Positions 1,778-26,500 of a stretch of 52,685 nt of DNA are shown here, piece after piece. The notes beneath the pieces are model-generated. The model had not been told where the DNA came from. It saw nothing but the letters and a program-made list of their open reading frames with translations, and searched no databases. The stretch is from a virus. Lineage: Duplodnaviria > Caudoviricetes. The first letter of the stretch is position 1, and each line of letters starts with the position of its first letter. The stretch is from positions 1 through 52,685 of IMG/VR virus record IMGVR_UViG_3300025687_000060. One strand, 5' to 3'. The position numbers were made by a program, and so were the translations under genes.

Positions 1778-1974
1778 ACCCCCAAATGATTGTCATTCCC
1801 AAGTCTAACAAAGCAAAGAATAGACTTGTGAATCTAATGAACAGTGATCCTATTATTACTGTTGAACAGGAAACACCTACCCAATTCTTCTGTGCTTCAT
1901 CTAATCAAAAGAACTTCTTCTGGGTGAATAAGACTAACGATTCACACTGGAACATCATGCCATTAGAACAATGA
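1774..1974 (+). CDS. small hypothetical protein
   Basis: ATGA overlap with upstream ORF (translational coupling). Confidence 0.75.
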   Translation: MNPQMIVIPKSNKAKNRLVNLMNSDPIITVEQETPTQFFCASSNQKNFFWVNKTNDSHWNIMPLEQ

Positions 1975-2138
1975 ATCTCTCTACTATCACTCTCACAGTC
2001 AACAAAGACGAGGTTAATCCACTCTTACTACAGGATGCACTGATCATGTTACTACACACAATGAAGGTTGAAGTAGAAGAGAGCAGCGTATCTAACATTA
2101 CGGAGGAAGAGAATAGAGAGTACACTTCGTCCTTGTAA
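1971..2138 (+). CDS. small hypothetical protein (55 aa, MNLSTITLTVNKDEV...)
   Basis: Manually translated; ATGA overlap with previous ORF; TAA at 2136-2138. Confidence 0.6.
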   Translation: MNLSTITLTVNKDEVNPLLLQDALIMLLHTMKVEVEESSVSNITEEENREYTSSL

Positions 2139-2144
2139 TGGTAG

Positions 2145-2202
2145 AAAAGTAGTTAAAATGGGGTAAAAAGGTATTAAAAACGTTATTAAATGTATTAAAA
2201 AA
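2145..2202. repeat. helically phased A-tracts
   Basis: A-runs start at 2145, 2155, 2165, 2176, 2188, 2197 (about 10.4-bp period). Confidence 0.7.
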
Positions 2203-2306
2203 TATATTAGAGTGTTTTATTCGTCTTGATAATTATTAGTATTATTGTGTGATAATGATATGGATTCGTATCAAATAGTGTACTTATTCGTCCTTGGAAA
2301 CGTTAG

Positions 2307-2377
2307 AAATAGTGTAGAATACCTTATGGAATAGTGTCTATTATCTTATGAAATAGTCTGTATTATCTTATGAAATG
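2307..2377. repeat. 22-bp imperfect tandem repeats (iteron-like)
   Basis: aaatagtgtagaataccttatg / gaatagtgtctattatcttatg / aaatagtctgtattatcttatg plus a partial fourth unit; a further aaatagtgta at 2273. Confidence 0.8.
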
Positions 2378-2693
2378 CTTCGGGGTCTTGTGGTCTTAGC
2401 GTGCGCTCTACCGAAAGTCAACATAAAACTCCCAAACCCTCATAATACTTCACAGACCCAGGCAGTTTTTCACTTTTTCCCTTTTTCAGTTTTTATAATT
2501 TTTCAATTTATTACAAATACATAAAACCACATAAAGTCTCTGAGATTTTATGATAGAATGGCACAGTACAGTAAGGTATAGATACACTCCTAATTTACAC
2601 TGTATAATAACTCAGAGGACTTGTAAATATAATTTAATGAATTGAAATAATTATATTTTGTTTTGTTCAATTCTTTATATCTTATTATTTTAT

Positions 2694-2787
2694 GGCAGGG
2701 GCGGTGGCGACCTTTGGCGTCATCAGTGCTACCCCGCACCTCGTCGGATTGTCAGTCAGGCAAGCAAGGTTCCCTCCCTCGATTGTC
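2694..2787 (-). ncRNA. candidate small structured RNA (strand uncertain)
   Basis: GC-rich island downstream of a minus-strand promoter; hairpin 2694-2740; no credible ORF. Confidence 0.35.
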
Positions 2788-2792
2788 CCCAT

Positions 2793-2844
2793 ATCCTACA
2801 GCATCAGGCGGCAGAGCACAAGGCAAAAGAGTAGCGGATGATAC
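2793..2844 (-). promoter_or_regulatory. sigma70-type promoter with upstream GTA-N8-TAC box
   Basis: Minus strand TTGTGC (2821-2816), 17 nt, TAGGAT (2798-2793); box GTAGCGGATGATAC at 2831-2844. Confidence 0.6.
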
Positions 2845-2897
2845 CAAAAACAGAATCCGATTGATCAGAAGGAGTTATGGGTCGGATCTGGAAAACG

Positions 2898-2949
2898 GTA
2901 TCGCTCGCTACCGTTTGCTCTTGACGGGGTGAGATGGGTGCCGTATTGT
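2898..2949 (+). promoter_or_regulatory. sigma70-type promoter with upstream GTA-N8-TAC box
   Basis: Box GTATCGCTCGCTAC at 2898-2911; TTGACG (2921-2926), 17 nt, TATTGT (2944-2949). Confidence 0.7.
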
Positions 2950-2975
2950 TGTCTCAAGTCAATCAACCGCCTTCA

Positions 2976-3575
2976 ATGACCGCTGAGAACGTCGCCGCCG
3001 TCTTCGCCCTTGCTACTGCTGGGGAGCGCCAGACTCATGCAAGTTGGTACGAAACCGCCAGGGGCGCTGCCATCGCCATCGCTGACGCCACTGGATTGGA
3101 ACTAGAGACCGTTGTTGGCGTGATCGCTGCCCTGTCGCCAACCAACAAGTGGGAGCGTAACTTAGTCGATGCTGAGAATGTCTGCCGTACCTATGTGGCG
3201 GATCCCGAGTCTGCTGCAAGCGTTAAAGTCTGCACATATGGAAATAACCTCAAGAAAGCGATTAAGGTGCTTGAGTGTGAAGAACTGGATGAGATTCCGA
3301 CTATACTCAACGGTCGTAAGATCACTGCGTTCTTCCACTGTATTATGGGTAATCAGGACGCCGTTGTTGTTGACGGTCACGCCTATTCTATCTGGATCGG
3401 TGATCGTCTTACTATGAAACAAGTGCCTAGTATTGGTGTGAAACTGTACAGAATTATCGTTGCTGATTATGTTCAAGCGACCGATATCATCAACGCTCGC
3501 TATAACCTAACTCTGAAACCTTACCAGGTCCAGAGCATTACTTGGAACGCCTGGAAACGCATCCACGGAGTATAA
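2976..3575 (+). CDS. phage protein resembling HhH-GPD DNA-glycosylase-fold proteins (DUF7178-like)
   Basis: Motifs WY...AALSP..W..N, G.KI..F...I, VVDGHA, Q..TW; start reassigned to ATG2976 after the promoter; family call is from memory. Confidence 0.6.
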   Translation: MTAENVAAVFALATAGERQTHASWYETARGAAIAIADATGLELETVVGVIAALSPTNKWERNLVDAENVCRTYVADPESAASVKVCTYGNNLKKAIKVLECEELDEIPTILNGRKITAFFHCIMGNQDAVVVDGHAYSIWIGDRLTMKQVPSIGVKLYRIIVADYVQATDIINARYNLTLKPYQVQSITWNAWKRIHGV

Positions 3576-3584
3576 AGAACCGAA

Positions 3585-3611
3585 GGGAGAGTTACTAACA
3601 CTAACTCTCCC
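3585..3611. terminator. perfect 10-bp hairpin, possible terminator (better U-tail on the minus strand)
   Basis: GGGAGAGTTA-CTAACAC-TAACTCTCCC; minus-strand tail TTCGGTTCTTT. Confidence 0.55.
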
Positions 3612-4175
3612 AACACAAAATATAGAAAACCGTTTTTTCCTTTTTTTACATTTTTGTATCTTTATTCTTTATCCTTAAACCTTGAACTTTCGTCGTTGTT
3701 CTTTATACTTCTACTCGATGTGTTCGTCTTAATTACACCTGAGCGATAGTTAATTGTACCACTATTTTATGCGTCTCAGATGAGATTTAATGGACTCTTT
3801 ATCATTACGTTTTGTCAAAATATACTTGACCTCATGAGACTCACAGTGATAAATGTAAAATAGCAGTGCAACTTCGTGGTCTTAAGTATACCTTTCGTTT
3901 TGTTACAACTGTATCAGGGCGAACAGCAGTTGTCCGTGATCCGTGTTATGGTGCGGGTTTTGCCCTTGCGGTTTAAAAACGCCTAACTACCCTAACCTAC
4001 AACGAACCAAAATCGCTTGAGATATCACAAACCCATAAAAATTTCCCAGGACCCCAGAAGACCCCCCATACCTTAAAGGACCCCCCAATTCCCGCCCAGG
4101 AAAAAAAATTCCCAGGGGTAAAAATGGTCTCAAAAGTTCGCAGATAATATATAAAGAAAAGTGCCTATGAATATT

Positions 4176-4326
4176 ATGAAACTCGAATTAGAAGACCACG
4201 AAAGAGAATTACTTATCGACACTCTAAGAGTATCGGATTGAGAACGACGTTGAGTTGATCAGAGATACAACAACCAAAGAAGATCTCACTTACTTATTGG
4301 AGAAAATAGAAGATGAATACTTATAA
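4176..4326 (+). pseudogene. small ORF apparently split by a +1 frameshift at about 4227
   Basis: MKLELEDHERELLIDTL continues in the +1 frame as EYRIENDVELIRDTTTKEDLTYLLEKIEDEYL*. Confidence 0.45.
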
Positions 4327-4498
4327 TATTTCAGTAAATGGAATCACAGTATTTCAGAGAATACCTGAAAGAAAAGTAAAAGATTACAAAGAACGGTTGA
4401 GAAATTTTATTTTTATGGGTAGTTCAAAGACTCTCAAGGACATTGAGGAAAGAATTGAAGTGTCTCTAAATACTAAAGATGACCATTGCAATAATTGA
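4313..4498 (+). CDS. small hypothetical protein
   Basis: 61-aa ORF in gene-dense + strand context. Confidence 0.65.
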   Translation: MNTYNISVNGITVFQRIPERKVKDYKERLRNFIFMGSSKTLKDIEERIEVSLNTKDDHCNN

Positions 4499-4514
4499 CT
4501 TGTGGTGGTATAAT
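4486..4514 (+). promoter_or_regulatory. sigma70-type promoter
   Basis: TTGCAA (4486-4491), 17 nt, TG-G-TATAAT (4509-4514). Confidence 0.7.
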
Positions 4515-4537
4515 AGATTCGTTACTAATTCATTTTC

Positions 4538-5287
4538 ATGGCTAAAGGATTTACAGTAAAAACCGTAGCGCCTTCAAAATCAAATACAGATGATTTTGAT
4601 TTGGCAGCAGCAAAAGAAATGATTCGAGGTAAGTCAGTTGTATTCTGTCTTCCAGGAAGAGGTTGTTCCTATATTTTCCTGAAGGCATTTGTGCAACTTT
4701 GCTTCGATCTCGTTCAGAATGGAGCAAGCATTCAAATTTCACAAGACTATAGTTCCATGGTGAACTTTGCACGTTGTAAGTGTCTTGGTGCAAATGTTCT
4801 CCGTGGTCCCAAGCAGATTCCTTGGGATGGTAAACTTCAGTATGATTATCAACTGTGGATTGATAATGATATTGTCTTCGATACCGAGAAGTTTTATCGT
4901 CTGGTTGCAATGGACAAAGAGATTGCCGCTGGTTGGTATTGTACCGAAGACGGTCGTACCACGTCCGTTGCACATTGGTTGGAAGAAGGTGATTTCCGTC
5001 AGAATGGTGGCGTGATGAATCATGAAACCATAGAAACCATGAGCAAGCGTCGCAAGCCTTTCACTGTGGACTACACTGGATTCGGATGGGTTCTGATTAA
5101 GCATGGAGTTTTTGAGAGTCTTGAGTATCCTTGGTTCGCTCCGAAGATGCAACAGTTTGAGTCTGGAGAGGTTCAGGATATGTGTGGCGAGGATGTCTCG
5201 TTCTGTCTAGATGCGATTGAGAAAGGATATGAGATCTGGTGCGACCCCCAGATTCGTGTGGGGCATGAGAAGACTCGTATTATTTGA
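4538..5287 (+). CDS. GT-A fold glycosyltransferase-like protein
   Basis: WIDNDIVF (DxD), TGFGWVLIK...FE, GEDVSFC...G..IW.D.....GH motifs typical of GT2-like phage proteins. Confidence 0.75.
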   Translation: MAKGFTVKTVAPSKSNTDDFDLAAAKEMIRGKSVVFCLPGRGCSYIFLKAFVQLCFDLVQNGASIQISQDYSSMVNFARCKCLGANVLRGPKQIPWDGKLQYDYQLWIDNDIVFDTEKFYRLVAMDKEIAAGWYCTEDGRTTSVAHWLEEGDFRQNGGVMNHETIETMSKRRKPFTVDYTGFGWVLIKHGVFESLEYPWFAPKMQQFESGEVQDMCGEDVSFCLDAIEKGYEIWCDPQIRVGHEKTRII

Positions 5288-8685: not shown

Positions 8686-11600
8686 ATGGCAGATAAAAAA
8701 GTAAGTATCTCTAATATTCTGGGCAGTCAGATCCCAGATTTTATTCAGAGCGAAAGTCCTCTGTTCAAAGAATTTTTAGAGCAATACTATGCTTCCGAAG
8801 AGCATGAGTATGGTACAACTTATCTTGCCGATAATCTTGATGATCTGAAAGATATCTCAAAACTATCTGGTGTAATATATGCTGCTGTTCCAGTAGTATT
8901 AACTGAAGATGCCTACCACCTTGATGAAGTTATCAATGTTAATACTACTGAGGGTTTTCCAGATACCTATGGTTTAATTAAAATTGATAATGAAATTATT
9001 ACATACACTGGAAAGACATTAACTTCATTTACTGGTTGTGTTCGTGGTTTTAGTGGTATATCTAAGATTGAAAGTAGCAATAATCCAGAGTTTTTAACCT
9101 TTAGTGATACCGAAATTGATTATCATTATTCTGGAACTTCAGTTGAAAATCTCAGTCTTTTATTTGTAGAGAAATTTTACAATAAATTTAAATATCAGTT
9201 TTTGCCAGGACTTGAAAATAGAAATTTTGAGAACTTATCTTTTGAAAATATTCTCTCTAGAGCAAAAGATTTTTACAGTTCAAAAGGAACTGATACAGCA
9301 GTAAAAATTCTCTTCAACGTTCTATTTGCAAAAAATGCAACTGTAATTAGACCATTTGATAATACCATTGTATCTTCGGATGCATATTGGTCAAAGTTCC
9401 CATCATTAACAGTAGAAACAATTGAAGGAAATCCAAAAAATTTAGAGTCTACAACTATTTTTCAAGGTTCGACAGAATCACCAACTGCAACTGCGGTAGT
9501 ATCTAGGGTTGAGGAAAAATTTGTAGGAACAAAGAGATATTATAGATTATTCGTTTCACAGGGAACTTTATCGAATAAATTTAATGTATCAAAGAAAACC
9601 AAGGTACTAGGTACAACTAATTCTACATCTGTAGTTACTGTCGATTCTACTGTAGGATTCCCAGATTCAGGTATTTTTTATTATCAAACTTCTGAGGGAA
9701 ATTATGCCTCTGTAGAATATCAGTCGAAATCATATAATCAATTTTTTGGTTGCTCTGGTTTATCTGATCCATTAGAGGAAAGCACAGAAATCATTGATGA
9801 TAATTTCATATATGGAAATGAAAATTTTGATTTGACCCAAATTTGTCAAATGAGAATTATTGGATCAATTCAAGGTCTTTCCGAAAATAGCAAAAATTCT
9901 CAGTATTTCAAAAAAGGAGATTTAATAAGTTTAAAATATTTTGGAGAAAAACCTTCACTAGAGAATAAAAAATACAATAGTTGGTTTTATAACAATGTTT
10001 ATGAACTTGACATAGAAAATTTAGATATATCCACAAGTACTGTCACAACAAGCGCAAAACATTTCTTACATGTTGGTGATGTCGTAGATATTTTAATTAA
10101 AGATACAAAACAAGTTGCTGCTAGTGACCTAGAAGTTACTAGCATACTTAGCAAAAATGCATTTAAAATTCAATCTGGATCTTTCCAATCTGGAGTAAAG
10201 TATATTGCTAAGAAGAAATTATTATATTCTAATTCAAACTTAATAGATACACCGCTCTTAGCAAATATTCAAAATTCTTTTTCGGATTTAGAAGAAAATA
10301 TATACGTATCTTTTTCTGGTCTACCTTCATATAGTAGCATAGAAACGTCTGATAGATCCAAGACTTTTAGGTTCAGTGATGTTGATACTAGCACTGGAAT
10401 AGTTACAATTAATCAACATCAATTTTTAAATGGAGATAGAGTTTATTTCGAAGTAACTTCTGGGTCCAATTATGTTACTGATGGATTCTATTACATAAAA
10501 AAAATTACAGTAAACACTTTTAAATTATCTTCAAGTTTACCTTCAATTTATAGTAACTTTAGTGTAGATTTTAGTGGAATTTCAAGTGTAGATGAATTTA
10601 AAATAACTCCATTTTCATTATATCAAAAAGTTTTACAAAATCAAAATCATTTAAAGAGAATACTAAAGAATCCAAGAGCAAAAAAAGAAGATAGAATTAT
10701 TTCCGATGAAATTGGAACTTTGCTAAATGGCATAGAGTTAAAATCTCCAGTTTCATCAGATTCCTATTTCTATGGTCAAATTGAAAGTATAAACATTATA
10801 GACGATGGAAATGATTTTGATGTTTTAAATCCTCCAGATATTCAAATCATAGATGATTCTGGATCTGGGGCAAATGCCCATTTAAATCTAGATGGAGAAC
10901 TTGTAGATGTTGTTTTGACATCTGGTGGATTCAATTATGCAGAAAATCCAGTTGTAAAAGTTATTGGAGGTAACGGATCTGGAGCAGTTTGCGAATCTAA
11001 ACTGAGAGGTTATTATCATCAAGAATCATTTACAGATTTTCAAGTTAATCTCGTTACAAATATAATTGAGTTACCAGAACCTCATAAGTTTTTAGACGGG
11101 GAAGAGGTCGTATATTTAAATACTGGAAATTCTATTGGAATTGGAAGTACTAATGTTGGATTTAGTACAGATAGACTTTCCAAAAATAGTTTGTATTACA
11201 TTGCAAAACAAAGTGACACTTCATTCTCTTTGGCAGCAACAAAAGACAGAGCATTATCGAAAACAAAATTAATAGACTTGAATGCATATGGAAATGGAGA
11301 CCATACATTAAAATCAAGAGAACTCAGAAAAATAATTGATAGAATTTCTGTAATAAATCCTGGAGAAGGATACAAAAATACTAAAATAGAAGTAGATTCC
11401 CAGTCATATCCACAATCTAATAGAAAAAATCTTTTCACACAGTTTGTTGGTATAAACACTCATGATAATTACATTTATGCGAGAAATCATAATTTTAGAA
11501 GTGGCGATCAGGTAGTTTATTCTATTTCTTCTGGTGGTTCAGCAATCTCTGGATTATCTACTTCAAATTACTACATTGTGACTGTAATAGATGACCATAA

Positions 11601-14600
11601 GTTCAAATTAAGTGAAGCAGGAACTGCCTCCAGTATAACTAGTGTCAACTATGATAGAAAAATATATTCTGAAATAAATGATATTGGTTCTGGAAGTCAT
11701 ACTTTTAAGTATCCAGAAATTCAAGTTTCAATTGATGGATTAGTGTCCCTTGGATCTACTACAGTAATTCCATCTTATTATCAAGCAAGCGCATATCCAG
11801 TTGTAAGAGGAAGCATAGATAGCGTTTTCATTAAATCTGGAGGAATTGGTTACGGAGTTACTGATATTATCAATTATTCAAGAACACCCGCAATAAAAAT
11901 TCTCACAGGTAAAGAAGCAGATTTAAGAGCAGTTGTTGATTCTACTGGAAAATTAAGCAGCATTTATATATCAAATGGTGGATCAGAGTACACTACTCCA
12001 CCAACCCTTGTTGTAGAAGGATCTGGTATTTCTGCTTCTCTTAGAGCAAATATATCAAATGGAGTTATTACATCTGTTGATATTTTAGATGCAGGTAAAA
12101 AATATAAACAAAATGACACAAAGATCAGAGTAATTCCAACTGGATCTAATGGAAGATTGGGAGCAGAATTACATGAGTGGAAAATTAATGATGTAAAAAG
12201 ATATCAAAATATATTATCCGATCTGAATGTTCATACTATCCAGAAAAAAGCACCTATTCCTTCTTTGGGATCAAAATTAGTTTCATTTTATCCTGCAAGA
12301 TTTTATCGTTCATTACTAAATGACAATGTTGTAGATACCCAAAGTGGATATATTGAAGCAACTAGCAATTTGAATCATTCTCCTATAATTGGGTGGGCGT
12401 ATGACGGAAATCCAATTTATGGACCATATGGAAATGGTAAAGCAATTCCAGATGCTTCGGGAACTGGTGGAATTAAGAAAATTTATTCAAGTTATTCGAT
12501 AGATCAAGTAATTACACCTGGATTAAGACCTCCAGTTCCTGCTGGAGATTTGGTACAGGATTATTTGTATGACTCTAGTGGAGACCTTGATGAATACAAT
12601 GGAAGATATATCGTTAACTCTGATTTTCCAAATGGAACATATGCATATTTCTGCACGTTAGATGTGTCGGATAATTTTGCATATCCATATACTACATTCA
12701 TGCATAGAAATGAGTCTGATGGATTTAATTATGACTTAACAAAAAATCAATTAGATGCAACTATTAATGATGGAAACTACAAGAGAAATGTATCTCATTT
12801 GGGAATAAATGATGTCTTCAGAAATTATCCATTTGTATCGCCTGCCGTAGAATCTAATCCAGAAGTAGAAGTAACTTACTCAAAACCTTCTGGAATTACC
12901 TCTCTTGATATTGTTGATCCTGGTTCTTCCTATAAAGTTGGTGATTTGATTAATTTCAATACACCAGAAATTAGTGCTTCTGTTAAGGAAATCAAAGGAA
13001 AGGGGATATATTCGATTCAGAGCACAGATTATACCTATGAAAATGTAGTATTTTCAATAAATGGAAATAAAGTTACTGGAATAACTACATCTTCTAATAA
13101 TTTTATTGATGGTGATCGTCTGGAAATATCTGGAATTTCTTCTTCATTGTATATAGATTTAGAAGGGATTAAAAAAGTAGGTGTAAGTACAGTTGAAAGC
13201 TTACTATCCGTCTCGCTTGGAACTACATCAATAACTGGTATAAACACACATTTAACTCTTACAGAATCACCAAGAAGTAGAAAGTTCAGGAAAAATGATC
13301 TGATCCAAATTGGATCAGAATTGATTTTGATTACCGATTTAGACCTTGTTAATAATAGGTATAAGGTCCTTAGAGAACAAAATGGTTCAACAAGTTCAAG
13401 TCATACCGAAAATACACAGGTAACAAAAATACAAAAAGAATTTTCATTTGAAATTGATAAAAAACTACAAAATAAAAACGTAGAGACAGGATACATACAG
13501 TATTTTAATTCATTGCAGTCTGTTGGTATTGGAACTTCATACTCTTCTGTAACTGTTGGTTTTGCTGGAAGTACACAAATTGTAAAATCAATTCCACCAA
13601 GAGCAATATATCTAAATGATCACAAATTCGAAACTGGGGATGAACTGAGATATGTATCATATGGTGGATCTATTACTGCTTCAGCAACAAATTCTTTAAG
13701 TGATACATTTAGGTTAGATGAGTTTGATAAGTTATATTGTGTCAAAATTAATGATGAGTATATTGGAGTATCAACACAAAAAGTAGGATTCACAACAAAC
13801 TATGTTTATTTTGATGCTGCAACTGATACTTCTCATAGTTTTGAAGTAATTAAAACTAATTTGACTGGAATAGTCAAAAAGAAATTAATAACAGTAACAT
13901 TAAACGAACAGCATTCACTTAAAAATAATGATGAAATAAGTCTTAGAGTTACCCCTAAGAGAACCCAAAATTATAATTTTATTTTCAATGATTCTGCTAG
14001 GAAGTTAGTAGTAAATTCAGTTTCATTTGCATCAACGTATATTTCTGTTGGTTCTACAGATTCATCAATTTTCATAGAAAATCATGGACTCGAAACTGGA
14101 GATTTAGTGGTATATACTAATAATATTGGTATTGCGACTCCATTGCAGAACAATGAAACATATTATGTTATAAAAATTTCTGATAGTAGAATAAAGTTAG
14201 CAAAAAATTCATATGATTATAAAAAATACCCATACTCTTATATCGGCATCACGACCTTTGGATCTGGTTTACATGAAATTTCAAAAGTCAATCCAAAATT
14301 AGAATTCTATAAGGGAAATACAGTATCAATTGGAGTTTCCGATGTCAGTTTAATAGACTATGATGTAAACTTCTATTTGGATGATAAATTCAAAGCAAGA
14401 TATAATTCTAGTTTGATTACAAAAACTGGAGTGTTTGGTGACTTAAATCCAAATACTAAAATTAATATTAATGTTACTGATGATCTACCAAAAACTTTAT
14501 TTTACAGATTGGAAGGAAAAAATAATAATTACACCAATACTTTCCCATCTTCAATTAACGCAGAAGTAAATGAAAATTCAACTATAAAAGTTTTAGATTC

Positions 14601-17600
14601 AAAATATAATAATTCTCATATTATTTCTGGAATTGGTAGTACAACATTTGATTTTAATTTTGTTGGATTTGCAGAAACTACATCTTATACATCTTCCAAT
14701 GTTAATGATGTATTTTACTATACAAAATCAACAAATGATAGTGGTCCAATTTATTCGACAAAAATTATCGAATACGGAAGAAATGTTGCTGAATTCCCAT
14801 TTGTAACTTCGATTGGTTCTACTAGTGGTTCTGATGCGAGTATTTCTGCAAATAGTTTTGATATTGGAAGAATAGTTGACACTAAAGTCAATAATCAAGG
14901 ATATGAATTTGTAGAGGATAAAACATTAACACCAAAAGCAAACTCAAATACAGTTCTTTTCCTGAAAAATGCTTTAACCTTATCTGGAGTAAATGTAACA
15001 GATGGTGGAAGTAATTATACATCTCCACCAAATATAACTGCAGTTGGAAATGATTCGATACTTGCCATTTCAAAACTTCAAGGCAACTCTGTATTATCTG
15101 CTGAGGTTATTTTTGGTGATAGTAATTTGTCTCCAGATTTGAGACTATTCCCAACAAATAACTCCAATGGGGTAACCGTTATTGGTTCTTCATCTGCTTT
15201 TGGAGAAAATACTTTAACTCTTAGAGCACCAATTTTGGGATTCACTGTATTCCCATTTGAAGAAGGTGATGAAATTTTTGTAGAAAACGTCAAAATTATT
15301 GACGGTTCTGGAAGTGGATATAATTCTGCTGATTATGACTATCAAAAATTAGTTGTAACGGGAATTAACACGATTAGTGGATCAGAGAGTGTAACTTATG
15401 CAATACCTGGAGTTGGTGCTACGACTGGAGGTTCCTATGATTCATCTAATACTTTTGGAAGAGTGGTAAAATATGACAATTTATGCGAACTTAGTCCCAT
15501 CTTAGATAAAGTTTTATACTTAGAGGGGGAGAAAGTACAATCTACCAATGGCGATGCATATGGATTTGTAGCGAAAAATGGTTGGAATCCAGACAATCAA
15601 ACTTTAAAACTTATTAACGTTTCTGGGCAATTTGATCAAAATGATATAATATCTGGAAATATTAATGGTTACAAATCTACTGTTTCTAGTACAGTAGAGT
15701 ATGATTTTGATTTAAAAGTTGGAAGTGTAGTAGAGACAGAAGGACAATGGCAAACTGATACTGGAAAACTAAATTTAGATACTCAAAGATTGCATGACAG
15801 TGACTATTATCAGAGATTTTCATATTCAATAAAAGGTGAAGTTCCATATGAAACCTGGTCAGAACCAGTTGATAGTTTGTGTCACACTTCTGGTTTCAAA
15901 AAGTTTTCAAATTTAGAAATTAATAATGGAATAGGAAATTCAGTAAGAACATCAATCAATGATACTACAATCAATTTAGATATTCTGGTTGATAGTTCTG
16001 CATCCGTACATTCTATTACTCATTATGATTTGGTTTCGGAAGATACAGATGATCCAGGTCTATCTAAACTTGTAAAGTTAGATTCTAAAATTATTACAGA
16101 TTATATTGAATCCAGAACGAATAAAGTTTTAATGATCGATGATCTTAGTTCAGATTTTACTGGATACACAACTTCTATCGGCGGACAAATTGTAGGACTA
16201 ACAACATTTGCAATTTATAGTGATGAAATTAGTTTATTGTATCATACTTTCGATCCAGATGATACATTAAATTCAATTATCACTATTAATTCTCACAATT
16301 TTATCACTGGAGAGGAACTGAAATATTCACCAACAAATAACGATTTGAATAGTGGAACAGCAATAGGAATTGCTACTACAAGTTCCCTTGGTATTGGGGT
16401 AGGATCGACAGATTTGCTTCCAGAAACAGTATATGCTATCAAACTATCAGAAAGTCAAATCAAACTTGCTATAGGGTCATCAGAAGCGTTAGCAGGAACT
16501 GCTATATCATTTACTAGCGTCACTGGTATTGGATCTACTCATAGTTTAGAAGTTAGTAGCGATTTAGCAAACACTAGAAGTTTGATAACAATTGATAATG
16601 TTATCCAAAGTCCAGTTTCCAGAAAAGATATTCAGGTTTCCCTTTCCGATGCCGTGGGAATTGGTTCTACAATTGTATATTTGAATGATATATCTAAGAT
16701 AACAGGAAACTCTTTGTTAAAAATTGAAGATGAAATCATAAAGGTCACCTTTGTTGGTATTGGATCAACAAACTCTTTGAATATTATTAGAGGTCAAATG
16801 GGAACTGTTGCTGCTGCACACACCATAGGTGCTGGAGTAACGGTCCTTTCTGGAGATTATAATATTGCACATGGAAATTTATATTTCAAAGATGCTCCTT
16901 ATGGAAATAGTGATAACAGATCAACTTTCTCGGGAAGAATATTCTATAAACTAAATTATGATACCAATTTAATTATTGATGACATTTCAGAGTCATTTGA
17001 TGGTGCAACTGATAAATTCGATTTGACTTCAAACTCACAACAAATCAGTGGAATTCAAACTAGTTTTGGAGTTATTCTGATCAATAACATATTCCAAAAA
17101 CCATTCTATGGTGATGTTGGTTCTATTTTAAATTCTGATTATCAAATTGTTGGAACAGGACAAACCATAGATTTCACTGGAACGACAGTTGAGGATCTCC
17201 CAAGAGGTGGAATTATTAATGAATTTGATGTTGGTATCGGAAGTGGGTATCAAGTACCAAGAAGAGCACTAGCAACAGCAGTTATTTCTGCTAGTGGTAC
17301 AATTCAATCAATTGGTCTTTCTACTGGTGGTTCTGGTTATATTGATGCTCCTAGAGTTTCAATAGCAGATACACTTGGTGTTGGGATTGGTGCTTCAATT
17401 ATTGCATCTGTAACTGCTGGACTAGTCACTTCATTTACAATTGCAGCTGCTGGAAGCGGTTATACAAGTACAAACCCACCTCTAGTTGTAATTGATGAAC
17501 CAAATCCATACAAAGACATTCCACTTTCTGGTGGACAAGGATCTGGAGCAAAAATGGATGTTGTTGTTGGAACTGGAGGGAGTATAATAACATTTGATAT

Positions 17601-18966
17601 TTCTAATCGTGGAATTGGTTATGAAATTGGTGATATTTTAACTTTAGCAGAACTTCCATTCCAAGTTGGAATCGGTACAAGCAACTTCGAAATAACTGTT
17701 AGAAATAGATATCAAAACAAGTTTGCTGGATGGACTTTTGGTCAATTATTAGAATTAGATAGTTTTGATAATCTATTCAATGGTGTGAGGAGATCATTCC
17801 TTTTAACCAGAACAATCACATCAAAGGAATATTATAGTATTGTTGCTCAAGAAGGTTCTGGCATCGAATTGCAAAATAATCTGTTGATATTCTTAAACGA
17901 TACGTTGCAAATACCAGGAAAAGACTATACATTCAATGGTGGTACTCGTTTGCAGTTTACTGAAGCACCAAGAGCGGGAAGCAAAATTAAATTATACTTC
18001 TATAATGCGTCATCTTCTGATGCAGTTGAGGTAGATATCGATGAAACAATTAAACGTGGAGATATACTAACCTTACAGACACAAGGAACGGTTCCACAAC
18101 AAGATGACAGAGTAATCTATGAGGTAATTGCTGCAGATACTGTAGAAACACAAACATATAGTGGAGTTGGAATCATAACAGATACATCTTTCACTAGACC
18201 AACAATATGGACAAAACAAACGTCAGATACAATTATTGATGGTGAATATATTTCCAAAGAAAGAGATTATTTGGAACCAAAGATTTTCCCATCCACAAAT
18301 ATTATTGCATCAGTTGCATCTACAGATGGAAAAATTTATGTCAAAGACACATATCTTTTCAGTAAAGTAGATAACTTAGGTAACACTCTCAATGATGTTT
18401 TCATAGTTGGACTTGGAACTGAAGTAGTCACCGAAAAACTCTCATCGGTACAATATGCTGGTGATTATGGACTGATTGTTGGTGTTGGTGCAAGTTCAAC
18501 AGGAATTAATACAACATCACCAATGCTTGAAATTGATTTGATACCACATCCAGACATTTATAGCAATACCCCAGGACCAGGAGAAGTCTCTAGACCAGGA
18601 ATATCAACTGGAGATTATTTTGTAATCGAAAACACTATACTTGGAGATGGAGTTACTTCAATAGACAATAATTTCTCTATTGTCTCTGTAGGAAATAGTT
18701 TTATAGACAATGTTTACTATGCAAATAATGTTACTTCTATAGGGTCATCAGGAGTTCGTGTTTCCGTAAATGTCCAATCCATATCTGGAATTGATACTAC
18801 ATCATTACCAACTTTGCAAAATTATGGAACTTTCAGTTGGGGATACATGACAGCGCCAAGATCAGCAAATTCACAATCATTTGATTTCTATAATCAAAAT
18901 GGATTATTGGGAATAGAAACATCTGCTCATGTGGGTAGACTTTTGCAATTAAGATTGACCTACTAA
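8686..18966 (+). CDS. gp7: giant baseplate wedge initiator (gp7-like), 3426 aa
   Basis: Position between gp6 and gp8; FY.SKGT motif, HSPIIGWAYDGNPIYGPYG, DSDYYQRFSYSIK; many internal repeats. Confidence 0.8.
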   Translation: MADKKVSISNILGSQIPDFIQSESPLFKEFLEQYYASEEHEYGTTYLADNLDDLKDISKLSGVIYAAVPVVLTEDAYHLDEVINVNTTEGFPDTYGLIKIDNEIITYTGKTLTSFTGCVRGFSGISKIESSNNPEFLTFSDTEIDYHYSGTSVENLSLLFVEKFYNKFKYQFLPGLENRNFENLSFENILSRAKDFYSSKGTDTAVKILFNVLFAKNATVIRPFDNTIVSSDAYWSKFPSLTVETIEGNPKNLESTTIFQGSTESPTATAVVSRVEEKFVGTKRYYRLFVSQGTLSNKFNVSKKTKVLGTTNSTSVVTVDSTVGFPDSGIFYYQTSEGNYASVEYQSKSYNQFFGCSGLSDPLEESTEIIDDNFIYGNENFDLTQICQMRIIGSIQGLSENSKNSQYFKKGDLISLKYFGEKPSLENKKYNSWFYNNVYELDIENLDISTSTVTTSAKHFLHVGDVVDILIKDTKQVAASDLEVTSILSKNAFKIQSGSFQSGVKYIAKKKLLYSNSNLIDTPLLANIQNSFSDLEENIYVSFSGLPSYSSIETSDRSKTFRFSDVDTSTGIVTINQHQFLNGDRVYFEVTSGSNYVTDGFYYIKKITVNTFKLSSSLPSIYSNFSVDFSGISSVDEFKITPFSLYQKVLQNQNHLKRILKNPRAKKEDRIISDEIGTLLNGIELKSPVSSDSYFYGQIESINIIDDGNDFDVLNPPDIQIIDDSGSGANAHLNLDGELVDVVLTSGGFNYAENPVVKVIGGNGSGAVCESKLRGYYHQESFTDFQVNLVTNIIELPEPHKFLDGEEVVYLNTGNSIGIGSTNVGFSTDRLSKNSLYYIAKQSDTSFSLAATKDRALSKTKLIDLNAYGNGDHTLKSRELRKIIDRISVINPGEGYKNTKIEVDSQSYPQSNRKNLFTQFVGINTHDNYIYARNHNFRSGDQVVYSISSGGSAISGLSTSNYYIVTVIDDHKFKLSEAGTASSITSVNYDRKIYSEINDIGSGSHTFKYPEIQVSIDGLVSLGSTTVIPSYYQASAYPVVRGSIDSVFIKSGGIGYGVTDIINYSRTPAIKILTGKEADLRAVVDSTGKLSSIYISNGGSEYTTPPTLVVEGSGISASLRANISNGVITSVDILDAGKKYKQNDTKIRVIPTGSNGRLGAELHEWKINDVKRYQNILSDLNVHTIQKKAPIPSLGSKLVSFYPARFYRSLLNDNVVDTQSGYIEATSNLNHSPIIGWAYDGNPIYGPYGNGKAIPDASGTGGIKKIYSSYSIDQVITPGLRPPVPAGDLVQDYLYDSSGDLDEYNGRYIVNSDFPNGTYAYFCTLDVSDNFAYPYTTFMHRNESDGFNYDLTKNQLDATINDGNYKRNVSHLGINDVFRNYPFVSPAVESNPEVEVTYSKPSGITSLDIVDPGSSYKVGDLINFNTPEISASVKEIKGKGIYSIQSTDYTYENVVFSINGNKVTGITTSSNNFIDGDRLEISGISSSLYIDLEGIKKVGVSTVESLLSVSLGTTSITGINTHLTLTESPRSRKFRKNDLIQIGSELILITDLDLVNNRYKVLREQNGSTSSSHTENTQVTKIQKEFSFEIDKKLQNKNVETGYIQYFNSLQSVGIGTSYSSVTVGFAGSTQIVKSIPPRAIYLNDHKFETGDELRYVSYGGSITASATNSLSDTFRLDEFDKLYCVKINDEYIGVSTQKVGFTTNYVYFDAATDTSHSFEVIKTNLTGIVKKKLITVTLNEQHSLKNNDEISLRVTPKRTQNYNFIFNDSARKLVVNSVSFASTYISVGSTDSSIFIENHGLETGDLVVYTNNIGIATPLQNNETYYVIKISDSRIKLAKNSYDYKKYPYSYIGITTFGSGLHEISKVNPKLEFYKGNTVSIGVSDVSLIDYDVNFYLDDKFKARYNSSLITKTGVFGDLNPNTKININVTDDLPKTLFYRLEGKNNNYTNTFPSSINAEVNENSTIKVLDSKYNNSHIISGIGSTTFDFNFVGFAETTSYTSSNVNDVFYYTKSTNDSGPIYSTKIIEYGRNVAEFPFVTSIGSTSGSDASISANSFDIGRIVDTKVNNQGYEFVEDKTLTPKANSNTVLFLKNALTLSGVNVTDGGSNYTSPPNITAVGNDSILAISKLQGNSVLSAEVIFGDSNLSPDLRLFPTNNSNGVTVIGSSSAFGENTLTLRAPILGFTVFPFEEGDEIFVENVKIIDGSGSGYNSADYDYQKLVVTGINTISGSESVTYAIPGVGATTGGSYDSSNTFGRVVKYDNLCELSPILDKVLYLEGEKVQSTNGDAYGFVAKNGWNPDNQTLKLINVSGQFDQNDIISGNINGYKSTVSSTVEYDFDLKVGSVVETEGQWQTDTGKLNLDTQRLHDSDYYQRFSYSIKGEVPYETWSEPVDSLCHTSGFKKFSNLEINNGIGNSVRTSINDTTINLDILVDSSASVHSITHYDLVSEDTDDPGLSKLVKLDSKIITDYIESRTNKVLMIDDLSSDFTGYTTSIGGQIVGLTTFAIYSDEISLLYHTFDPDDTLNSIITINSHNFITGEELKYSPTNNDLNSGTAIGIATTSSLGIGVGSTDLLPETVYAIKLSESQIKLAIGSSEALAGTAISFTSVTGIGSTHSLEVSSDLANTRSLITIDNVIQSPVSRKDIQVSLSDAVGIGSTIVYLNDISKITGNSLLKIEDEIIKVTFVGIGSTNSLNIIRGQMGTVAAAHTIGAGVTVLSGDYNIAHGNLYFKDAPYGNSDNRSTFSGRIFYKLNYDTNLIIDDISESFDGATDKFDLTSNSQQISGIQTSFGVILINNIFQKPFYGDVGSILNSDYQIVGTGQTIDFTGTTVEDLPRGGIINEFDVGIGSGYQVPRRALATAVISASGTIQSIGLSTGGSGYIDAPRVSIADTLGVGIGASIIASVTAGLVTSFTIAAAGSGYTSTNPPLVVIDEPNPYKDIPLSGGQGSGAKMDVVVGTGGSIITFDISNRGIGYEIGDILTLAELPFQVGIGTSNFEITVRNRYQNKFAGWTFGQLLELDSFDNLFNGVRRSFLLTRTITSKEYYSIVAQEGSGIELQNNLLIFLNDTLQIPGKDYTFNGGTRLQFTEAPRAGSKIKLYFYNASSSDAVEVDIDETIKRGDILTLQTQGTVPQQDDRVIYEVIAADTVETQTYSGVGIITDTSFTRPTIWTKQTSDTIIDGEYISKERDYLEPKIFPSTNIIASVASTDGKIYVKDTYLFSKVDNLGNTLNDVFIVGLGTEVVTEKLSSVQYAGDYGLIVGVGASSTGINTTSPMLEIDLIPHPDIYSNTPGPGEVSRPGISTGDYFVIENTILGDGVTSIDNNFSIVSVGNSFIDNVYYANNVTSIGSSGVRVSVNVQSISGIDTTSLPTLQNYGTFSWGYMTAPRSANSQSFDFYNQNGLLGIETSAHVGRLLQLRLTY

Positions 18967-20570: not shown

Positions 20571-23500
20571 ATGACCCAGAACACTAATTTAAATGTTTCT
20601 CCATATTTTGATGACTTCAATGATGAAAAGAACTACAACAAAGTTCTTTTTAAACCTGGATTCCCAGTTCAATCCAGAGAACTAACAACGCTACAATCAA
20701 TTTTACAAAATCAAATTGAAAAGTTTGGACAACATTTTTTCAAAGAAGGTTCTGTTGTTATTCCTGGTGGTACTTTTTATGACGATAGTTACTTCGCTGT
20801 AAGAGTAGATCCCAATTTCTTAGGTGTTCCTGTTTCTACATATTTAGATGTTTTAGTCAACAATAGAATAGAAATACAGGGAGAAATATCTGGAGTAAAA
20901 GCTACGGTTGTAAATAAAGTATCTTATCTAGAGTCTGAAGATGGTTATGATACGCTTTATGTAAAATATAATAGTTCTGGTTCAGATGGGTCAACCAGAG
21001 TATTCCAAAATGGAGAAAATTTAATAACTTTATCTGATATCACATATGCATCGACTTCTATTGATGCTAATAATACTTTTGCTAGATGTATTGTTTCAGA
21101 TTCAACAAAAACTGGATCTTCGGCATCGATAAGTGAAGGGGTATTTTTCATTAGAGGTTATTTTGTAAAAGTAAACTCTTCTACAGTAATTCTAGATCAA
21201 TACTCAAATACACCTAGTTATAGAATTGGTCTTCTCATTAGTGAAGAAATAGTTACTGCATCTTCATTAAATCAAGATCTTTATGATAATTCTCAAGGAT
21301 TTTCAAATGAGTCTGCCCCTGGTGCAGATAGATTTAGAGTCACTGCAACTCTTCACAAAAAACTGTTAACTGATACCAGTGACGAAAACTTTGTAGAGTT
21401 GATGCGTGTAGATAATGGATCTATAGAAAGATTTGTCAACAAAACAGACTACAATATTTTTAAAGATGAATTAGCAAGAAGAACTTATGATGAGTCTGGA
21501 GACTACTATGTAAGGCAATTTGCGTTAGATGTTAGAGAATCACTGAACGATAGAATAGGAAATAATGGAATTTATTTAAATACACAGACAACACAAAATG
21601 GAAATACTCCATCTGATGATATTTTCACAATTCAAGTTTCTCCAGGAAAAGCATATGTAAGAGGATATGAGATTGATAAAATCTCTACAACTTCTATTGA
21701 TGTATTAAAACCAAGAACAATAAAGAGTAAAGAGAATGTTAGTTTACCAGTTAATGTAAAAAATATTATGGAGGTAGAGAACGTTTATGGTTCTCCCAAA
21801 ATTGGATTCTCTACAACATACACTATAGAGTTACATGATAGAAGACTTGCTTCAAATGGACTTCTTGACGGAAGTTCTGTCCAAATCGGAAAAGCAAAGG
21901 TATATGACTACAATCAAAGTGTCTCTGGAATTACTACAACAAAATACGAACTGAGACTTCTTGATATTCAAACTTTTACAAACATTACTGTAGGATTTGC
22001 ACTAACAGCATCTGCAGGTTCTTACGTTAAAGGAAAATATAGTGGTTCCAGTGGAATTTCTGTAAGTGCTGTTACTGGTGGAACAACTATTTCTTTACAA
22101 GATGTAAGAGGAGATTTCCAAATAAATGAACCATTAGAAATTAATGGAGTAGATGTAGGGAGAAATATCACAACGATAAGAGATTACGATACAACCGACA
22201 CAAAAGCAGTTGGAGCAACTGTTGGTCTCTCGACATTTGCTGCTAACGTTACATTATCTAGGCAGAAAAAATCATTTACTGAAGCAAGTCAGTTTACAAT
22301 AAATTCGAATGGAACAGTTACTTCTTCTTCCATTTGGGATTTTAGAGACTATGTGAAAGTTGGAGACATCATAAGATATTCCGAACCAGCTTCAACTTTA
22401 CCAACATTTAATAGAGTAAATGCTGTTAACCAATCCAACTTTGTAGTCGAGGATATACCCTCAGTCACTAATGTCTGTGATGGTGGAGTTACAGGATCAA
22501 CATTTACCACAACAGATGTTGATATTTTAATTCCATCATTAAATTTAAATGCTGATCCAGGATACAGAATAAAGTTAAAAGACGAGTATATTTCTTCAAT
22601 TAATCTTTTAGATAGTTCGTATATTGTTAGAAAACAATTCAATGAGAATGTAACTGGAAGCACTTTCACATTCCAATTGAGTAGTTTAGGTGATAATGAT
22701 TTATATTTCGAACCATTCACCCAAGATAATTATATTTTAACTTGGGAGACTGGTCAGAAAGAGGTTATTCTTTCAACCCAAGTCACATTTGACTCAAACT
22801 TTAGAGAGTTAACAATTAATTCATTATCTAGAACTGGTAATGCAACTTTAACTGCAACTTGCAGAAGAACTAAATTATCATCAAAGAACAAATCAATCAA
22901 AAGATGCTCTAATCTTATTGTAAGTAGATCAAAGCATCAAGGATCTGGAATTGGATCTACAACTTTTGGTGATGGACTTTCATATAGTGAAGTATATGGA
23001 ACAAGAGTACAAGATGATCAAATATCATTGAACGTTGCTGACGTTTCTAGAATTCTTGCAATATTTGAATCAAATGATTCTAGTAATCCATCTTTACCTT
23101 CAATTGTAGTTTCATCACAAAGTGATACCTTTACGAATAATGTTATTGTAGGTGAACAATTTATAGGAGCAACTTCTGGAGCAGTTGCTCGTGTCGTTGA
23201 TATTTTAAGTGGAACACAATTGAATTTTGTGTATGAGAATGATAGACTTTTTGAGGTTGGAGAATCATTTACACTAAAAACCTCTGGCATTGTTGCTCAG
23301 ATTAGTAGTTTATCTGTCGGAAGTAGAAATATCTCCAAAAACTATGTTTTAGATGATGGACAAAGATCGGAGTTTTGTGACTTTGGAAGAATAGTTAGAA
23401 AGAGAAATATACCAGAACCAACTAAAAAAATAAGAATTGTTTTTGATTATTTTTCCAATAATGAAAGCAGTGGAACAGTTGAATCCATAAACAGTTATTC

Positions 23501-26500
23501 GTCTGTTAATTATTCAAATGATATTCCCTTTGCACTTGATAGAAGAGCAACAGATTTTATTGACCTTAGACCAAGAGTCAATTCATATTCTACATCATCT
23601 AGTGATTCACCATTCTCATTTAACAGTAGAAGTTTCTCTTCTTCATCATCAGAAACAGTAGTATCAAATAAAACCATTGTAGTGGATTATTCCTACTACC
23701 TTGGTAGAATTGATAGGTTGTATTTGACTAAAGATGGAAAATTTGAAGTCAAAAAAGGAGAACCATCAGAATATCCAAAGGCACCAGTTTCAAATACTGA
23801 GGCATTTGAGGTTGCTGTCATATCCATGACTCCATATGTCTTCAATGCAACAATTGACTCAAATGTGAAACTTATTCCACATAAGAGATTCACAATGAGT
23901 GATATTGGTGGACTTGAAAATAGAATTAAAACCCTTGAAGAGTACACGACTTTATCTCTTCTAGAAACTGACACAAAAAATCTTTCAATTAAAGACCCAA
24001 ATACAGGTTTAGATAAATTCAAATCTGGATTCTTCGTTGATAACTTTAGAAATCACAGATCACATAATTTATCTGGAGATTCATTCTTTGACATTGATGT
24101 CGAAAGAGGAGAGTGCAGACCAAGATCCACAGAAAGAAATATACCCCTTACATTTGAGACTAAATCTTCACTGTCCGACCCAGTAAATGCAGACTATAGG
24201 TGGATTGAAGATTTTGAAGACTCGAATGTCACCAGAAAGGGTAATGCATTAACTTTGTCATTCACTGAAGTAGATTTTATAGATCAACCTTTAGCGACCA
24301 GAACAGAGAATTTAAACCCATTCCATATTGCACTATATGCAGGATCCATCTCACTCAATCCTGCATCAGACTTCTGGATGGAAGAAGTCATTTTACCAAC
24401 ACCAGATGTAGTCAAGATCGATTCTCCATTTGATGGAATGGCATCTCTTCTTGGTGTTGAAGATCGTGAAAATGGTGGAATGGCCGCAAGTTATTGGAAT
24501 TCTCACGAGCAAACTTGGACAGGAAGAGAACAAATCAAAGAAGAAGTTCTTAGTGACGTAGAGGTTGGCAGACAAAGAACTTCCAATAGATTGCTAAGAG
24601 GTAATGGAATCAGAAGAATTACAACCGATGCTGTAACTAGACAAAGAGAATTACTTAATACATTTAATGAAACAGGTATCGATAGAGAATTTGGTTTCGA
24701 ACTTACCGCTGGCGAAGAAGTTGTAAGTCTTGGAAGTAGAGTCATTGGAGTAGATGTTCTCTTCAATTGCAGATCAAGGAATGTTGAAGTTGTTGGCAAG
24801 AGATTAAAACCAAATACCAGATACTACGTTTTTATGGAAAACGTAGACATGACAGATTATTGCGTTCCAAAACTTCTTCCAATTACTATGGTTAGAGGTT
24901 CTTTTGCAACTGGTGATATTGTTGATACTGTTACTCCTCCTGGATCGTCAACAGCAAGTATTAGAATGAGATTGGCACAACCAAACCATTTGTTTGGACC
25001 ATTCAATGCTCCAACAGATACTGTTGATTCAAGTATTAATGGAACTACTTTATACTCTGGAAGCAGTGAATATTTAAATATCGACACTGCTGGACTTGCA
25101 TTTCAAACAAGACCAGACCATCTTGGATGGGTAAAGTCTGGAAGCAAATTAGTTAATATTTCTGGAACAGCAGAAGCAACTGTTGATAATATTGAATTGG
25201 TATCGGATAGTACTGGAACTATCATATTCTCCTTACATATCCCAGATCCAAAAGTTTCAAGTAATCCTAAGTTTACGACTGGAAGCAATACAATCAGATT
25301 GACAACGAGTTCAGTAAACTCAAATCAATTGGATAAGAGTGAAAGTTCTGCGGAAGCAGTGTTTGTTGCCACTGGATATGCTCAAAATGTCCAAGAGCAA
25401 ACTTTATCGATCAAAACTGCAGAAGTAGAAAGAAAACAGATCGGCAGTGATCAACCAATTAGTAGGATTACACAAGAACTTGAAGAAGAAACAATCGTAG
25501 TCCAGGAAACTAGAGACACTGGTTGGTATGATCCACTTGCTCAGTCTTTCTTGGTTGATAGAAACCAAAGTCAAGATGGAGTCTTTATTACTGGTGGTGA
25601 AGTTTACTTTAAAGAAAAAGATCCAAATGTTGCGGTGACGGTTCAAATTAGAACCATGAGAGATGGAACTCCAACTACTACTATTGTTCCATATGGTGAA
25701 GTTACACTAAATCCATCAAGTGTAAACACTTCAACTGATGGTAGCGTTGCAACAAGATTTACCTTCAATACACCAGTTTACTTGCAAAGTGGTTATGAGT
25801 ATGCTCTGGTACTGGTAGCACCAACAGAAAAGTATCTTGCATTTGTAACAAGAATGGGAGAGGAAGATTTAATCCTCCAAACAGTTTATAATAGACAACC
25901 ATATCTTGGTTCTCTGTTCAAATCACAAAATAGTTCAACTTGGACTCCAAGTCAACTTGAAGACTTGAAATTTAAGTTGTTCAAAGCAAAATTTGTAACA
26001 AATACTCCATCATTTATTACTTTCTATAATAAAGAACTTCCATTAGTGAAGGTCAGAAAAAATAATCCAGTAGTAGCATACTCTAAGAGACAATATGTAT
26101 CTATAGCAAGTACAAATACTGCATTTGCCCAAGGAAATACCATTACACAGGGTTCCAATTCTGGAGATATTTTTGCCACTGGAGGTCCAGTTGATCTTGG
26201 TGGATCGGCATTAACTGTTTCATATTCTGGTATTGGATTGACTGATGGAACTTTTACTGGAATAGGATTTACATCTCTAACTGGATTTGGAAATTCTTGT
26301 CTTGCTACTGTTACAGTTTCAAGTGGAGCTATCAGTAATATTAGTGTAACTGATTCTGGTTCTGGATATGCAGTTGGAGATCTTTTACTTGCAAATCAAA
26401 TTGGAGAGACTGGATCTGGAGTAAGAGTAACAGTTGGATCTGTCAGTCAAACAAACTTAATTGTCCTTGATAATATTGATACAAATATTACCACTGGAAT

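Follow-up and report, generated by a model that had tools for sequence, protein, structure and literature searches.

A candidate divergent promoter cassette with NtcA-type palindromes in T4-like cyanophages

A short non-coding region of a cyanophage genome contains two GTA-N8-TAC palindromes of the type associated with the cyanobacterial regulator NtcA, each placed upstream of a promoter-like sequence and the two facing in opposite directions. We asked whether this arrangement represents a genuine pair of operators and promoters, what the two promoters would transcribe, and which protein would be the most likely reader of the boxes.

The DNA analyzed (the window) comprises an entire IMG/VR viral record (52,685 bp), with an estimated completeness of 28%. 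All its large ORFs are on the plus strand. Genes for T4-type baseplate proteins (gp25-, gp6- and gp8-like) indicate that the record is part of a T4-like cyanomyovirus. Two giant ORFs (8686–18966 and 20571–27821; 3,426 and 2,416 residues), one between the gp6- and gp8-like genes and one after them, are presumably baseplate or fibre proteins. Public runs with a matching stretch were labeled as freshwater, aquatic or salt-marsh metagenomes, and no tRNAs or known RNA families were found across the window.

Few ORFs are found around the double-box region, which precedes a DUF7178 gene; positions ≈2700–3200 form a GC-rich island (53–60% GC) with AT-rich flanks on both sides. A coding reading of 2658–2932 was considered and rejected: three frames looked non-coding, the alignments contained 1-nt indels, the related locus L003 lacks the ATG, and the short minus-strand ORFs were not conserved. 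The left flank (2138–2690) is ORF-poor, has 25–36% GC and is common to another locus, L089. Phased T-tracts were seen at 2466–2509, and a tandem repeat of ≈20 nt near 2330–2375.

Boxes, promoters and their natural variants

Direct reading of the sequence confirmed the two perfect GTA-N8-TAC boxes described in the initial annotation, at 2831–2844 (box 1) and 2898–2911 (box 2), and the imperfect inverted repeat drawn across both (2823–2918) was recovered by sequence reading and a repeat search. The geometry was also as described: on opposite strands, each box precedes a −35 by 9 nt and a −10 hexamer by 32 nt, which puts the box centers at ≈−51.5 from the predicted starts. The features of the locus are as follows:

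2695–2750, minus strand: conserved core of the putative leftward non-coding RNA (the "5-prime element"), defined by a family-wide pattern
2725–2740, minus strand: predicted 5-bp hairpin GGUGC-GGGGUA-GCACU of the leftward RNA, from pairing counts and RNAalifold
2751–2784, no strand: 34-nt insertion repeating the start of the conserved element, from alignment with L001 and the family
2793–2798, minus strand: −10 hexamer TAGGAT of the leftward promoter P_L; the TAnnnT position is kept across element copies
2816–2821, minus strand: −35-like hexamer TTGTGC of P_L, invariant in 9/9 double-box variants
2831–2844, no strand: box 1, GTAGCGGATGATAC, an NtcA-type palindrome GTAGC-N4-GATAC, from the sequence and a core search
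2845–2897, no strand: spacer between the boxes, of fixed length (no indel in nine variants) with a variable right part
2893–2916, no strand: box 2 as a 24-bp palindrome, AAACGGTATC-N4-GCTACCGTTT, from the repeat search and scans
2898–2911, no strand: box 2 core, GTATCGCTCGCTAC, GTA-N8-TAC, from the sequence and a core search
2921–2949, plus strand: P_R, a sigma-70-type rightward promoter, TTGACG (2921–2926), 17 nt, TATTGT (2944–2949)
2952–2962, plus strand: conserved initial transcribed motif TCTCAAGTCAA, with related motifs after the −10 in other cassettes
2976–3575, plus strand: DUF7178 gene, 199 aa, Ogg2-like fold (PF23802, 1.5e-45)

Transcription from P_R is predicted to start near 2956. 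In P_L, read on the minus strand, box 1 is followed by 9 nt, TTGTGC (2821–2816), 17 nt and TAGGAT (2798–2793), and the start would be expected near 2784–2786. A generic promoter scan supported only one half of the annotated pair: it listed the rightward promoter (9/12) and did not list the leftward one, which reached 7/12 by hand count and has a weak −35 (TTGTGC, 3/6).

We considered the possibility that the boxes resemble regulatory sites by chance only, in DNA that was recently duplicated or recombined, and have no regulatory function. GTA-N8-TAC by itself is only mildly enriched in the window, by about two-fold (16 occurrences vs. 8.36 ± 3.21 in shuffles, with at least 16 in 3 of 100 shuffles), which favors such a resemblance. 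However, of the composite of box, 9 nt, TTGNNN, 17 nt and TAnnnT the window contains two copies, both of them in this region, whereas 100 shuffles averaged 0.06. When the composite was relaxed, the count was again two, with 0.25 expected and two reached in 3 of 100 shuffles.

Scans with the repeat core identified four viral and six metagenome stretches, which together with the window make up nine distinct variants (the window, L082, L083=L085, L084=L135, L134, L136, L137, L138 and L139). The initial annotation had reasoned that genuine sites should keep their boxes and spacing while the inner bases vary, and this was the pattern observed: both boxes and all spacings were kept in 9/9 variants, with variation in the inner bases. 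The distance from the −10 of P_L to that of P_R was exactly 157 nt in every variant, without a single indel, while 62 of the 157 columns varied and the right part of the inter-box spacer was largely replaced from one variant to the next. None of the 12 GTA/TAC columns varied, and the C/G at 3 bp from each axis was invariant in all four half-sites; variation was found in 11 of the 12 remaining box columns. These column counts do not represent independent events, because the nine variants are close, recombining relatives, and this close relationship is the second point in favor of a chance resemblance. Against it stand the rarity of the composite, the position-specific variation with zero indels over 157 nt, and the recurrence of the module before unrelated genes, and we regard chance as very improbable. 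It is very probable that the divergent promoter pair with its operators is genuine.

The genes downstream of the nine variants encode DUF7178 (four variants), DUF7227 (three) or GP88 (two). Conversely, in a set of 54 homologous viral-contig loci encoding DUF7178 relatives, only L001 aligned through the repeat. Among the four closest of these, L001 has the boxes, and L002–L004, with DUF7178 proteins at 76–79% identity, carry a shorter, different palindrome. L089 has the AT-rich upstream flank of the window, only box 2, and a different downstream gene. Since L002–L004 have another palindrome and L089 only one of the boxes, the link between the boxes and the glycosylase-like gene is not gene-specific.

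The rightward gene and the leftward element

The true start of the DUF7178 gene is the ATG at 2976, rather than that at 2934: the PF23802 match covers the longer ORF from residue 15 onward, ATGACCGC is conserved in five loci, and in L001 a stop codon follows the upstream ATG. The rightward −10 box falls inside the longer ORF. The −35/17/−10 layout and the start-region motif were kept in many loci before different genes, so that the rightward promoter, as annotated, proved to be widely conserved.

Named DUF7178 relatives come almost exclusively from podoviruses. A comparison of DUF7178 with the PDB by sequence gave no match. An AlphaFold model built from 20 sequences (pLDDT 94.4) had as its best PDB matches three Ogg2-type 8-oxoguanine glycosylases (TM 0.53–0.58; Foldseek E 0.013–0.02, probability 1.00). 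Residues K115 and D133 were invariant in the 20 sequences; HhH-GPD/Ogg2-type enzymes have a conserved Lys–Asp pair with a spacing of about 18 residues. The initial annotation had called the gene glycosylase-like, and the term is a fair one for the modeled fold.

To the left, the initial annotation had proposed a non-coding transcript directed at an origin-like region. The pattern of the conserved element matched 27 viral-contig stretches, two of them by chance; 28 distinct copies were aligned and 34 were counted later, with up to three copies in one 10-kb locus. The element is found in unannotated gaps in the freshwater isolates S-SRM01 and DSL-LC03. It had no Rfam match on either strand, nor did its counterparts in five other loci, and we found nothing on it in the literature on cyanophage sRNAs. 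An Rfam-type search of 1800–4600 at E ≤ 10 gave only three chance snoRNA/miRNA matches.

The hairpin of the element was paired in 140 of 140 cells on the minus strand (24 of them G-U), compared to 82.9% on the plus strand. Two of its pairs had changes on both sides, and RNAalifold predicted the hairpin independently. The G-U cells stem from few lineages, so that the minus-strand pairing is moderate evidence. Searches by mutual information and RNAalifold gave no stems in the element beyond this one hairpin. A TAnnnT sequence (10 different hexamers) occurs 6 or 8 nt before the invariant AAUC start in 33 of the 34 copies, with a background of 2.2% per position. The one exception is the window itself, where the hexamer keeps the 8-nt distance to the repeated element start. 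The 34-nt insertion is specific to the window type and partly visible in the L137 fragment. Box 1 and the −35 of P_L (TTGTGC) were present only in the double-box type, the −35 being absent from the single-operator members and L089. Single-operator relatives have two −10 boxes 93–97 nt apart with one palindrome roughly between them, as judged from a noisy scan.

The leftward transcript thus received indirect support from the full pairing, seen on the minus strand only, and from the TAnnnT before its start, and it is probably a conserved phage non-coding RNA. There was no support for the AT-rich region to the left of the cassette as an origin, and an AT-rich tract downstream is lacking from most members of the element family. 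A pairing between the leftward RNA and the leader of the adjacent gene was tested at 19 loci and rejected (mean z = +0.27), as was a host origin of the element: 596 Gb of prokaryote genomes yielded six matches, five of them without the element context. The sixth (L141) is a contig of a Flavobacteriales MAG; it carries the full cyanophage element with its context, and is therefore probably a phage contig mis-binned into the MAG.

Like the cyanophage ncRNAs described in PMC12197685 (CfrI and the glnA, manA, wcaG and abiF motifs), the element is conserved, non-coding and intergenic. Unlike those, it has no Rfam match, differs in sequence and context, is divergent from an early promoter and has one short hairpin only.

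Contigs from RNA libraries, without strand or ends, map on 2183–2780. X19 covers 2183–2620, X20 covers 2498–2780 before continuing into sequence unlike the window, and variant forms (X21) cover 2862–2959. Since the libraries may contain DNA, these contigs give no verdict on either promoter. Within the stretch on which contigs were placed, the highest depth in three RNA libraries was at 3934–4030, which is 73–80% conserved in L001–L003; a fold search of 3905–4045 on both strands gave no stable structure. RNA-library contigs of two runs fuse 4012 directly to 4538, indicating relatives without the 525 nt (4013–4537) that hold a 61-aa ORF (4313–4498).

The inverted repeat, and the module at other loci

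The repeat search aligned arms at 2819–2845 and 2897–2923 (27 nt, 70% complementary), and the local palindrome of box 2 has arms at 2893–2903 and 2906–2916 (91% complementary). The repeat, taken as 111–116 nt, folded at z = −4.7 to −5.4, with none of 150–200 shuffles as good; a wider fold (2690–2935, 246 nt) was rejected, with z of ≈−1 on both strands and no advantage over shuffles. This raised the question of whether the long hairpin, as RNA or as a DNA cruciform, is the selected feature and the GTA-N8-TAC boxes are incidental, in which case the stem-loop might be part of a cassette resembling the PeSLs of T4-like phages and serve as an insulator, processing site or recombination substrate.

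The long hairpin is present in 8/9 variants (z ≤ −3.7), and the sibling cassettes described below, too, have a palindrome or hairpin just upstream of a promoter. PeSLs consist of a stem-loop joined to an early promoter and are found where genes have been shuffled (PMC4122927), and the cassette here precedes three different genes. The exception among the variants, L083=L085 (z = −0.1 to −0.4), points the other way: its box 2 is a direct rather than an inverted copy of box 1, so that the hairpin is lost, yet both palindromes, both promoters and every spacing are kept. Furthermore, differences between the arms are uncompensated, and the complementarity of the box arms is 10 to 15 of 16 positions, of which 10 come free from the symmetry of each box. 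Positions ±4 are often mismatched inside one box (e.g., GTATC...GCTAC or GTAGC...GATAC), showing that the conserved feature is not a local stem-loop. There is no U-run in the repeat, and a terminator scan of 2100–4600 gave no sites. A selected hairpin would also leave unexplained the single boxes found at the same distance from promoters elsewhere. We therefore consider a selected hairpin improbable. Since L083=L085 keeps its boxes without a hairpin, the 105-nt inverted repeat is most likely mainly a by-product of two mirrored box-plus-promoter modules, and the long hairpin, being formed in eight of the nine variants, may have a secondary structural role.

The module is reused. A scan with the 24-bp palindrome gave 37 stretches, and a search for the box over 969 kb of fetched loci gave 19 matches, 16 of them of the form GTAxC-N4-GxTAC. 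A box 9–10 nt upstream of TTGNNN-16/17-TAnnnT was found before other genes in L089, L099, L109, L112 and L097; in L109 and L112 it follows directly after the terminator-like hairpin of the preceding gene. The same box-plus-promoter module occurs in L061 and in the isolate S-SRM01, both of which had been fetched for unrelated reasons.

In S-SRM01 (L086, record positions 90141–91810), the conserved element is at 90141–90225 and an NtcA-like box plus promoter at 91597, with an HNH endonuclease gene (91021–91458) on the opposite strand between them; an insertion seems to have split the cassette. A check of the S-SRM01 paper for promoters, intergenic regions or NtcA was negative.

Comparison with PeSLs showed both shared and divergent properties. 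As in PeSLs (PMC4122927, PMC2839356), a palindrome or stem-loop is combined with a sigma-70-type early promoter (here a palindrome plus TTGNNN-17-TAnnnT) and repeated in plastic regions of T4-like genomes. The cassette also lies at borders of gene insertion or replacement, as seen from the exchange of DUF7178, DUF7227 and GP88, from the different gene in L089, and from assembly graphs of DNA and RNA runs, which break at 2781–2811. The terminator-like GC stem with a U-run is absent. The cassette here differs in being much longer (≈290 nt), in having an operator-like palindrome where PeSLs have a terminator stem with a U-run and no operator, and in including a divergent conserved non-coding element. 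For cyanophage S-PM2, PeSLs have been considered unlikely (PMC4503421), and in the literature consulted we found no report of a PeSL-type cassette like this one for cyanophages. By its sequence context, the region behaves as a PeSL-like shuffling cassette before DUF7178, DUF7227 or GP88 genes.

The likely reader of the boxes and its meaning

Both boxes have the palindromic GTA-N8-TAC core of NtcA sites, in 9/9 variants. In the NtcA–DNA co-crystal, the protein contacts a G 7 bp, a T 6 bp and a G 3 bp from the axis; the G-3 contact is present in about half of NtcA sites, and position 4 is free (PMC11850224). The bases that are invariant in the nine variants are those contacted by NtcA, and position 4 varies freely, so that the conservation pattern is that expected under selection for NtcA binding. 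The high-affinity box in the co-crystal, derived from glnA, has the form GTATC-N4-GATAC (PMC11850224), like the boxes here, and has C/G at the same distance of 3 bp from its axis.

The position of the boxes is non-canonical. In the NtcA-activated (class II) promoters described in PMC3898017, the box is at ≈−41.5, there is no −35, and TAN3T follows 22 nt downstream. The boxes here share with these promoters the GTA-N8-TAC core, a TAnnnT −10 and A/T-rich outer flanks, but are at ≈−51.5, next to a −35 hexamer that in the rightward promoter is a good one; in addition, there are two of them, 67 bp apart, serving opposite promoters in a phage genome. No TAnnnT was found 20–23 nt downstream of the boxes, and a literature search gave no precedent for NtcA at −51.5. 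According to the same description of class II promoters, A/T is preferred at the flanks, including the base adjoining GTA (PMC3898017). In the window this base is G in box 2 and A in box 1, and it is T in L061 and S-SRM01; the outer flanks of the boxes are A- or T-runs.

The same architecture could also be read by another dimeric DNA-binding protein, of host or phage. The outer flanks AAACG/CGTTT, which make box 2 a 24-bp palindrome and recur in unrelated contexts, are more conserved than NtcA would seem to require, and the location at −51.5 with an intact −35, instead of −41.5, points in the same direction. Furthermore, sibling cassettes (L056–L081) carry a quite different palindrome, ≈GTGSMCAGTT-N4-AAYTGKSCAC, at the position of the NtcA-like box, indicating that other regulators act on the same architecture; the contig L061 contains both operator types. 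(Examples of the sibling type are L061:6435–6560 and L065:1473–1600, several being upstream of a small ORF.) On the other hand, the invariant positions match the base contacts of NtcA, position 4 is free as in NtcA boxes, and the flanks do vary (AAATG, CATTT, CTTTT and T-runs) in L136, L138, L084, L061 and S-SRM01. A phage-encoded CRP-type regulator was rejected: a search limited to the CRP-type HTH (PF13545) found it in 0/5 phage records, including the complete S-SRM01 genome, and in 14/14 control genomes. Any CRP/FNR-type reader would therefore have to be host-derived. We consider a reader other than NtcA unlikely, while giving it more weight than a selected hairpin. NtcA is the best single candidate for the protein bound by these boxes, a candidacy for which belief and doubt are about equal.

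A larger regulon was also considered and rejected, since strict boxes are few in the complete genomes: three in S-SRM01 and one in DSL-LC03, below the control count. One of the three in S-SRM01 lies within coding sequence that looks like a photosystem gene. The small number of boxes also counts against NtcA as the reader.

NtcA sites had already been proposed in genomes of marine cyanomyophages by Sullivan et al. in 2010 (PMC3037559). As there, the sites here are intergenic GTA-N8-TAC sequences with a proposed link to host 2-oxoglutarate. The earlier set consists of single motif matches from a scoring model, whereas here there are invariant contact positions, fixed spacing, a −35/−10 composite and a divergent non-coding unit.

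The interpretation offered in the initial annotation is supported in part. The explanation that we favor, which we hold to be about evenly poised as a whole, is a divergent cassette with NtcA-type operators in which both transcripts would be tied to the carbon and nitrogen state of the host. In this view, T4-like cyanophages of freshwater and estuaries share a regulatory cassette that recombines, and the region 2690–2975 would be one copy of it, transcribed divergently. On the right, a promoter of host type (TTGACG-17-TATTGT) would drive the Ogg2-like DUF7178 gene from a start near 2956; leftward, TTGTGC-17-TAGGAT would drive the conserved non-coding RNA from a start near 2784–2786. Nine bases upstream of each −35, centered near −51.5, a CRP/FNR-type palindrome, GTAxC-N4-GxTAC, would be read most likely by the 2-oxoglutarate-activated NtcA dimer of the host, thereby coupling both transcripts to host carbon/nitrogen state.

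NtcA-type operators and PeSL-like cassettes are known kinds of element; here they come in a variant form with an undescribed RNA element attached. Until now, the case for phage use of the host nitrogen sensor had rested on motif counts since 2010. The cassette provides a concrete, testable promoter with comparative evidence at the bases that NtcA touches. Its geometry departs from the canonical one (−51.5 with a −35), and a natural variant without the hairpin allows the protein site to be told apart from the RNA structure. It points to a phage-specific ncRNA family absent from Rfam and to a mechanism of early-gene shuffling in cyanomyoviruses, and since the isolate S-SRM01 carries the parts, tests in culture are possible.

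More generally, and with somewhat more doubt than belief, we propose that freshwater and estuarine cyanomyoviruses carry mobile divergent-promoter cassettes, in which an unannotated, phage-specific sRNA gene is set opposite an early gene with an interchangeable palindromic operator between the two, at ≈−52 from both starts, combining nutrient sensing with recombination joints. If this is true, early gene expression would be linked to host nutrient sensing by way of the cassettes, through an operator of the NtcA type or of another type, and the cassettes would also serve as recombination joints at which early genes are swapped, a cyanophage counterpart of PeSLs with an RNA gene and an operator.
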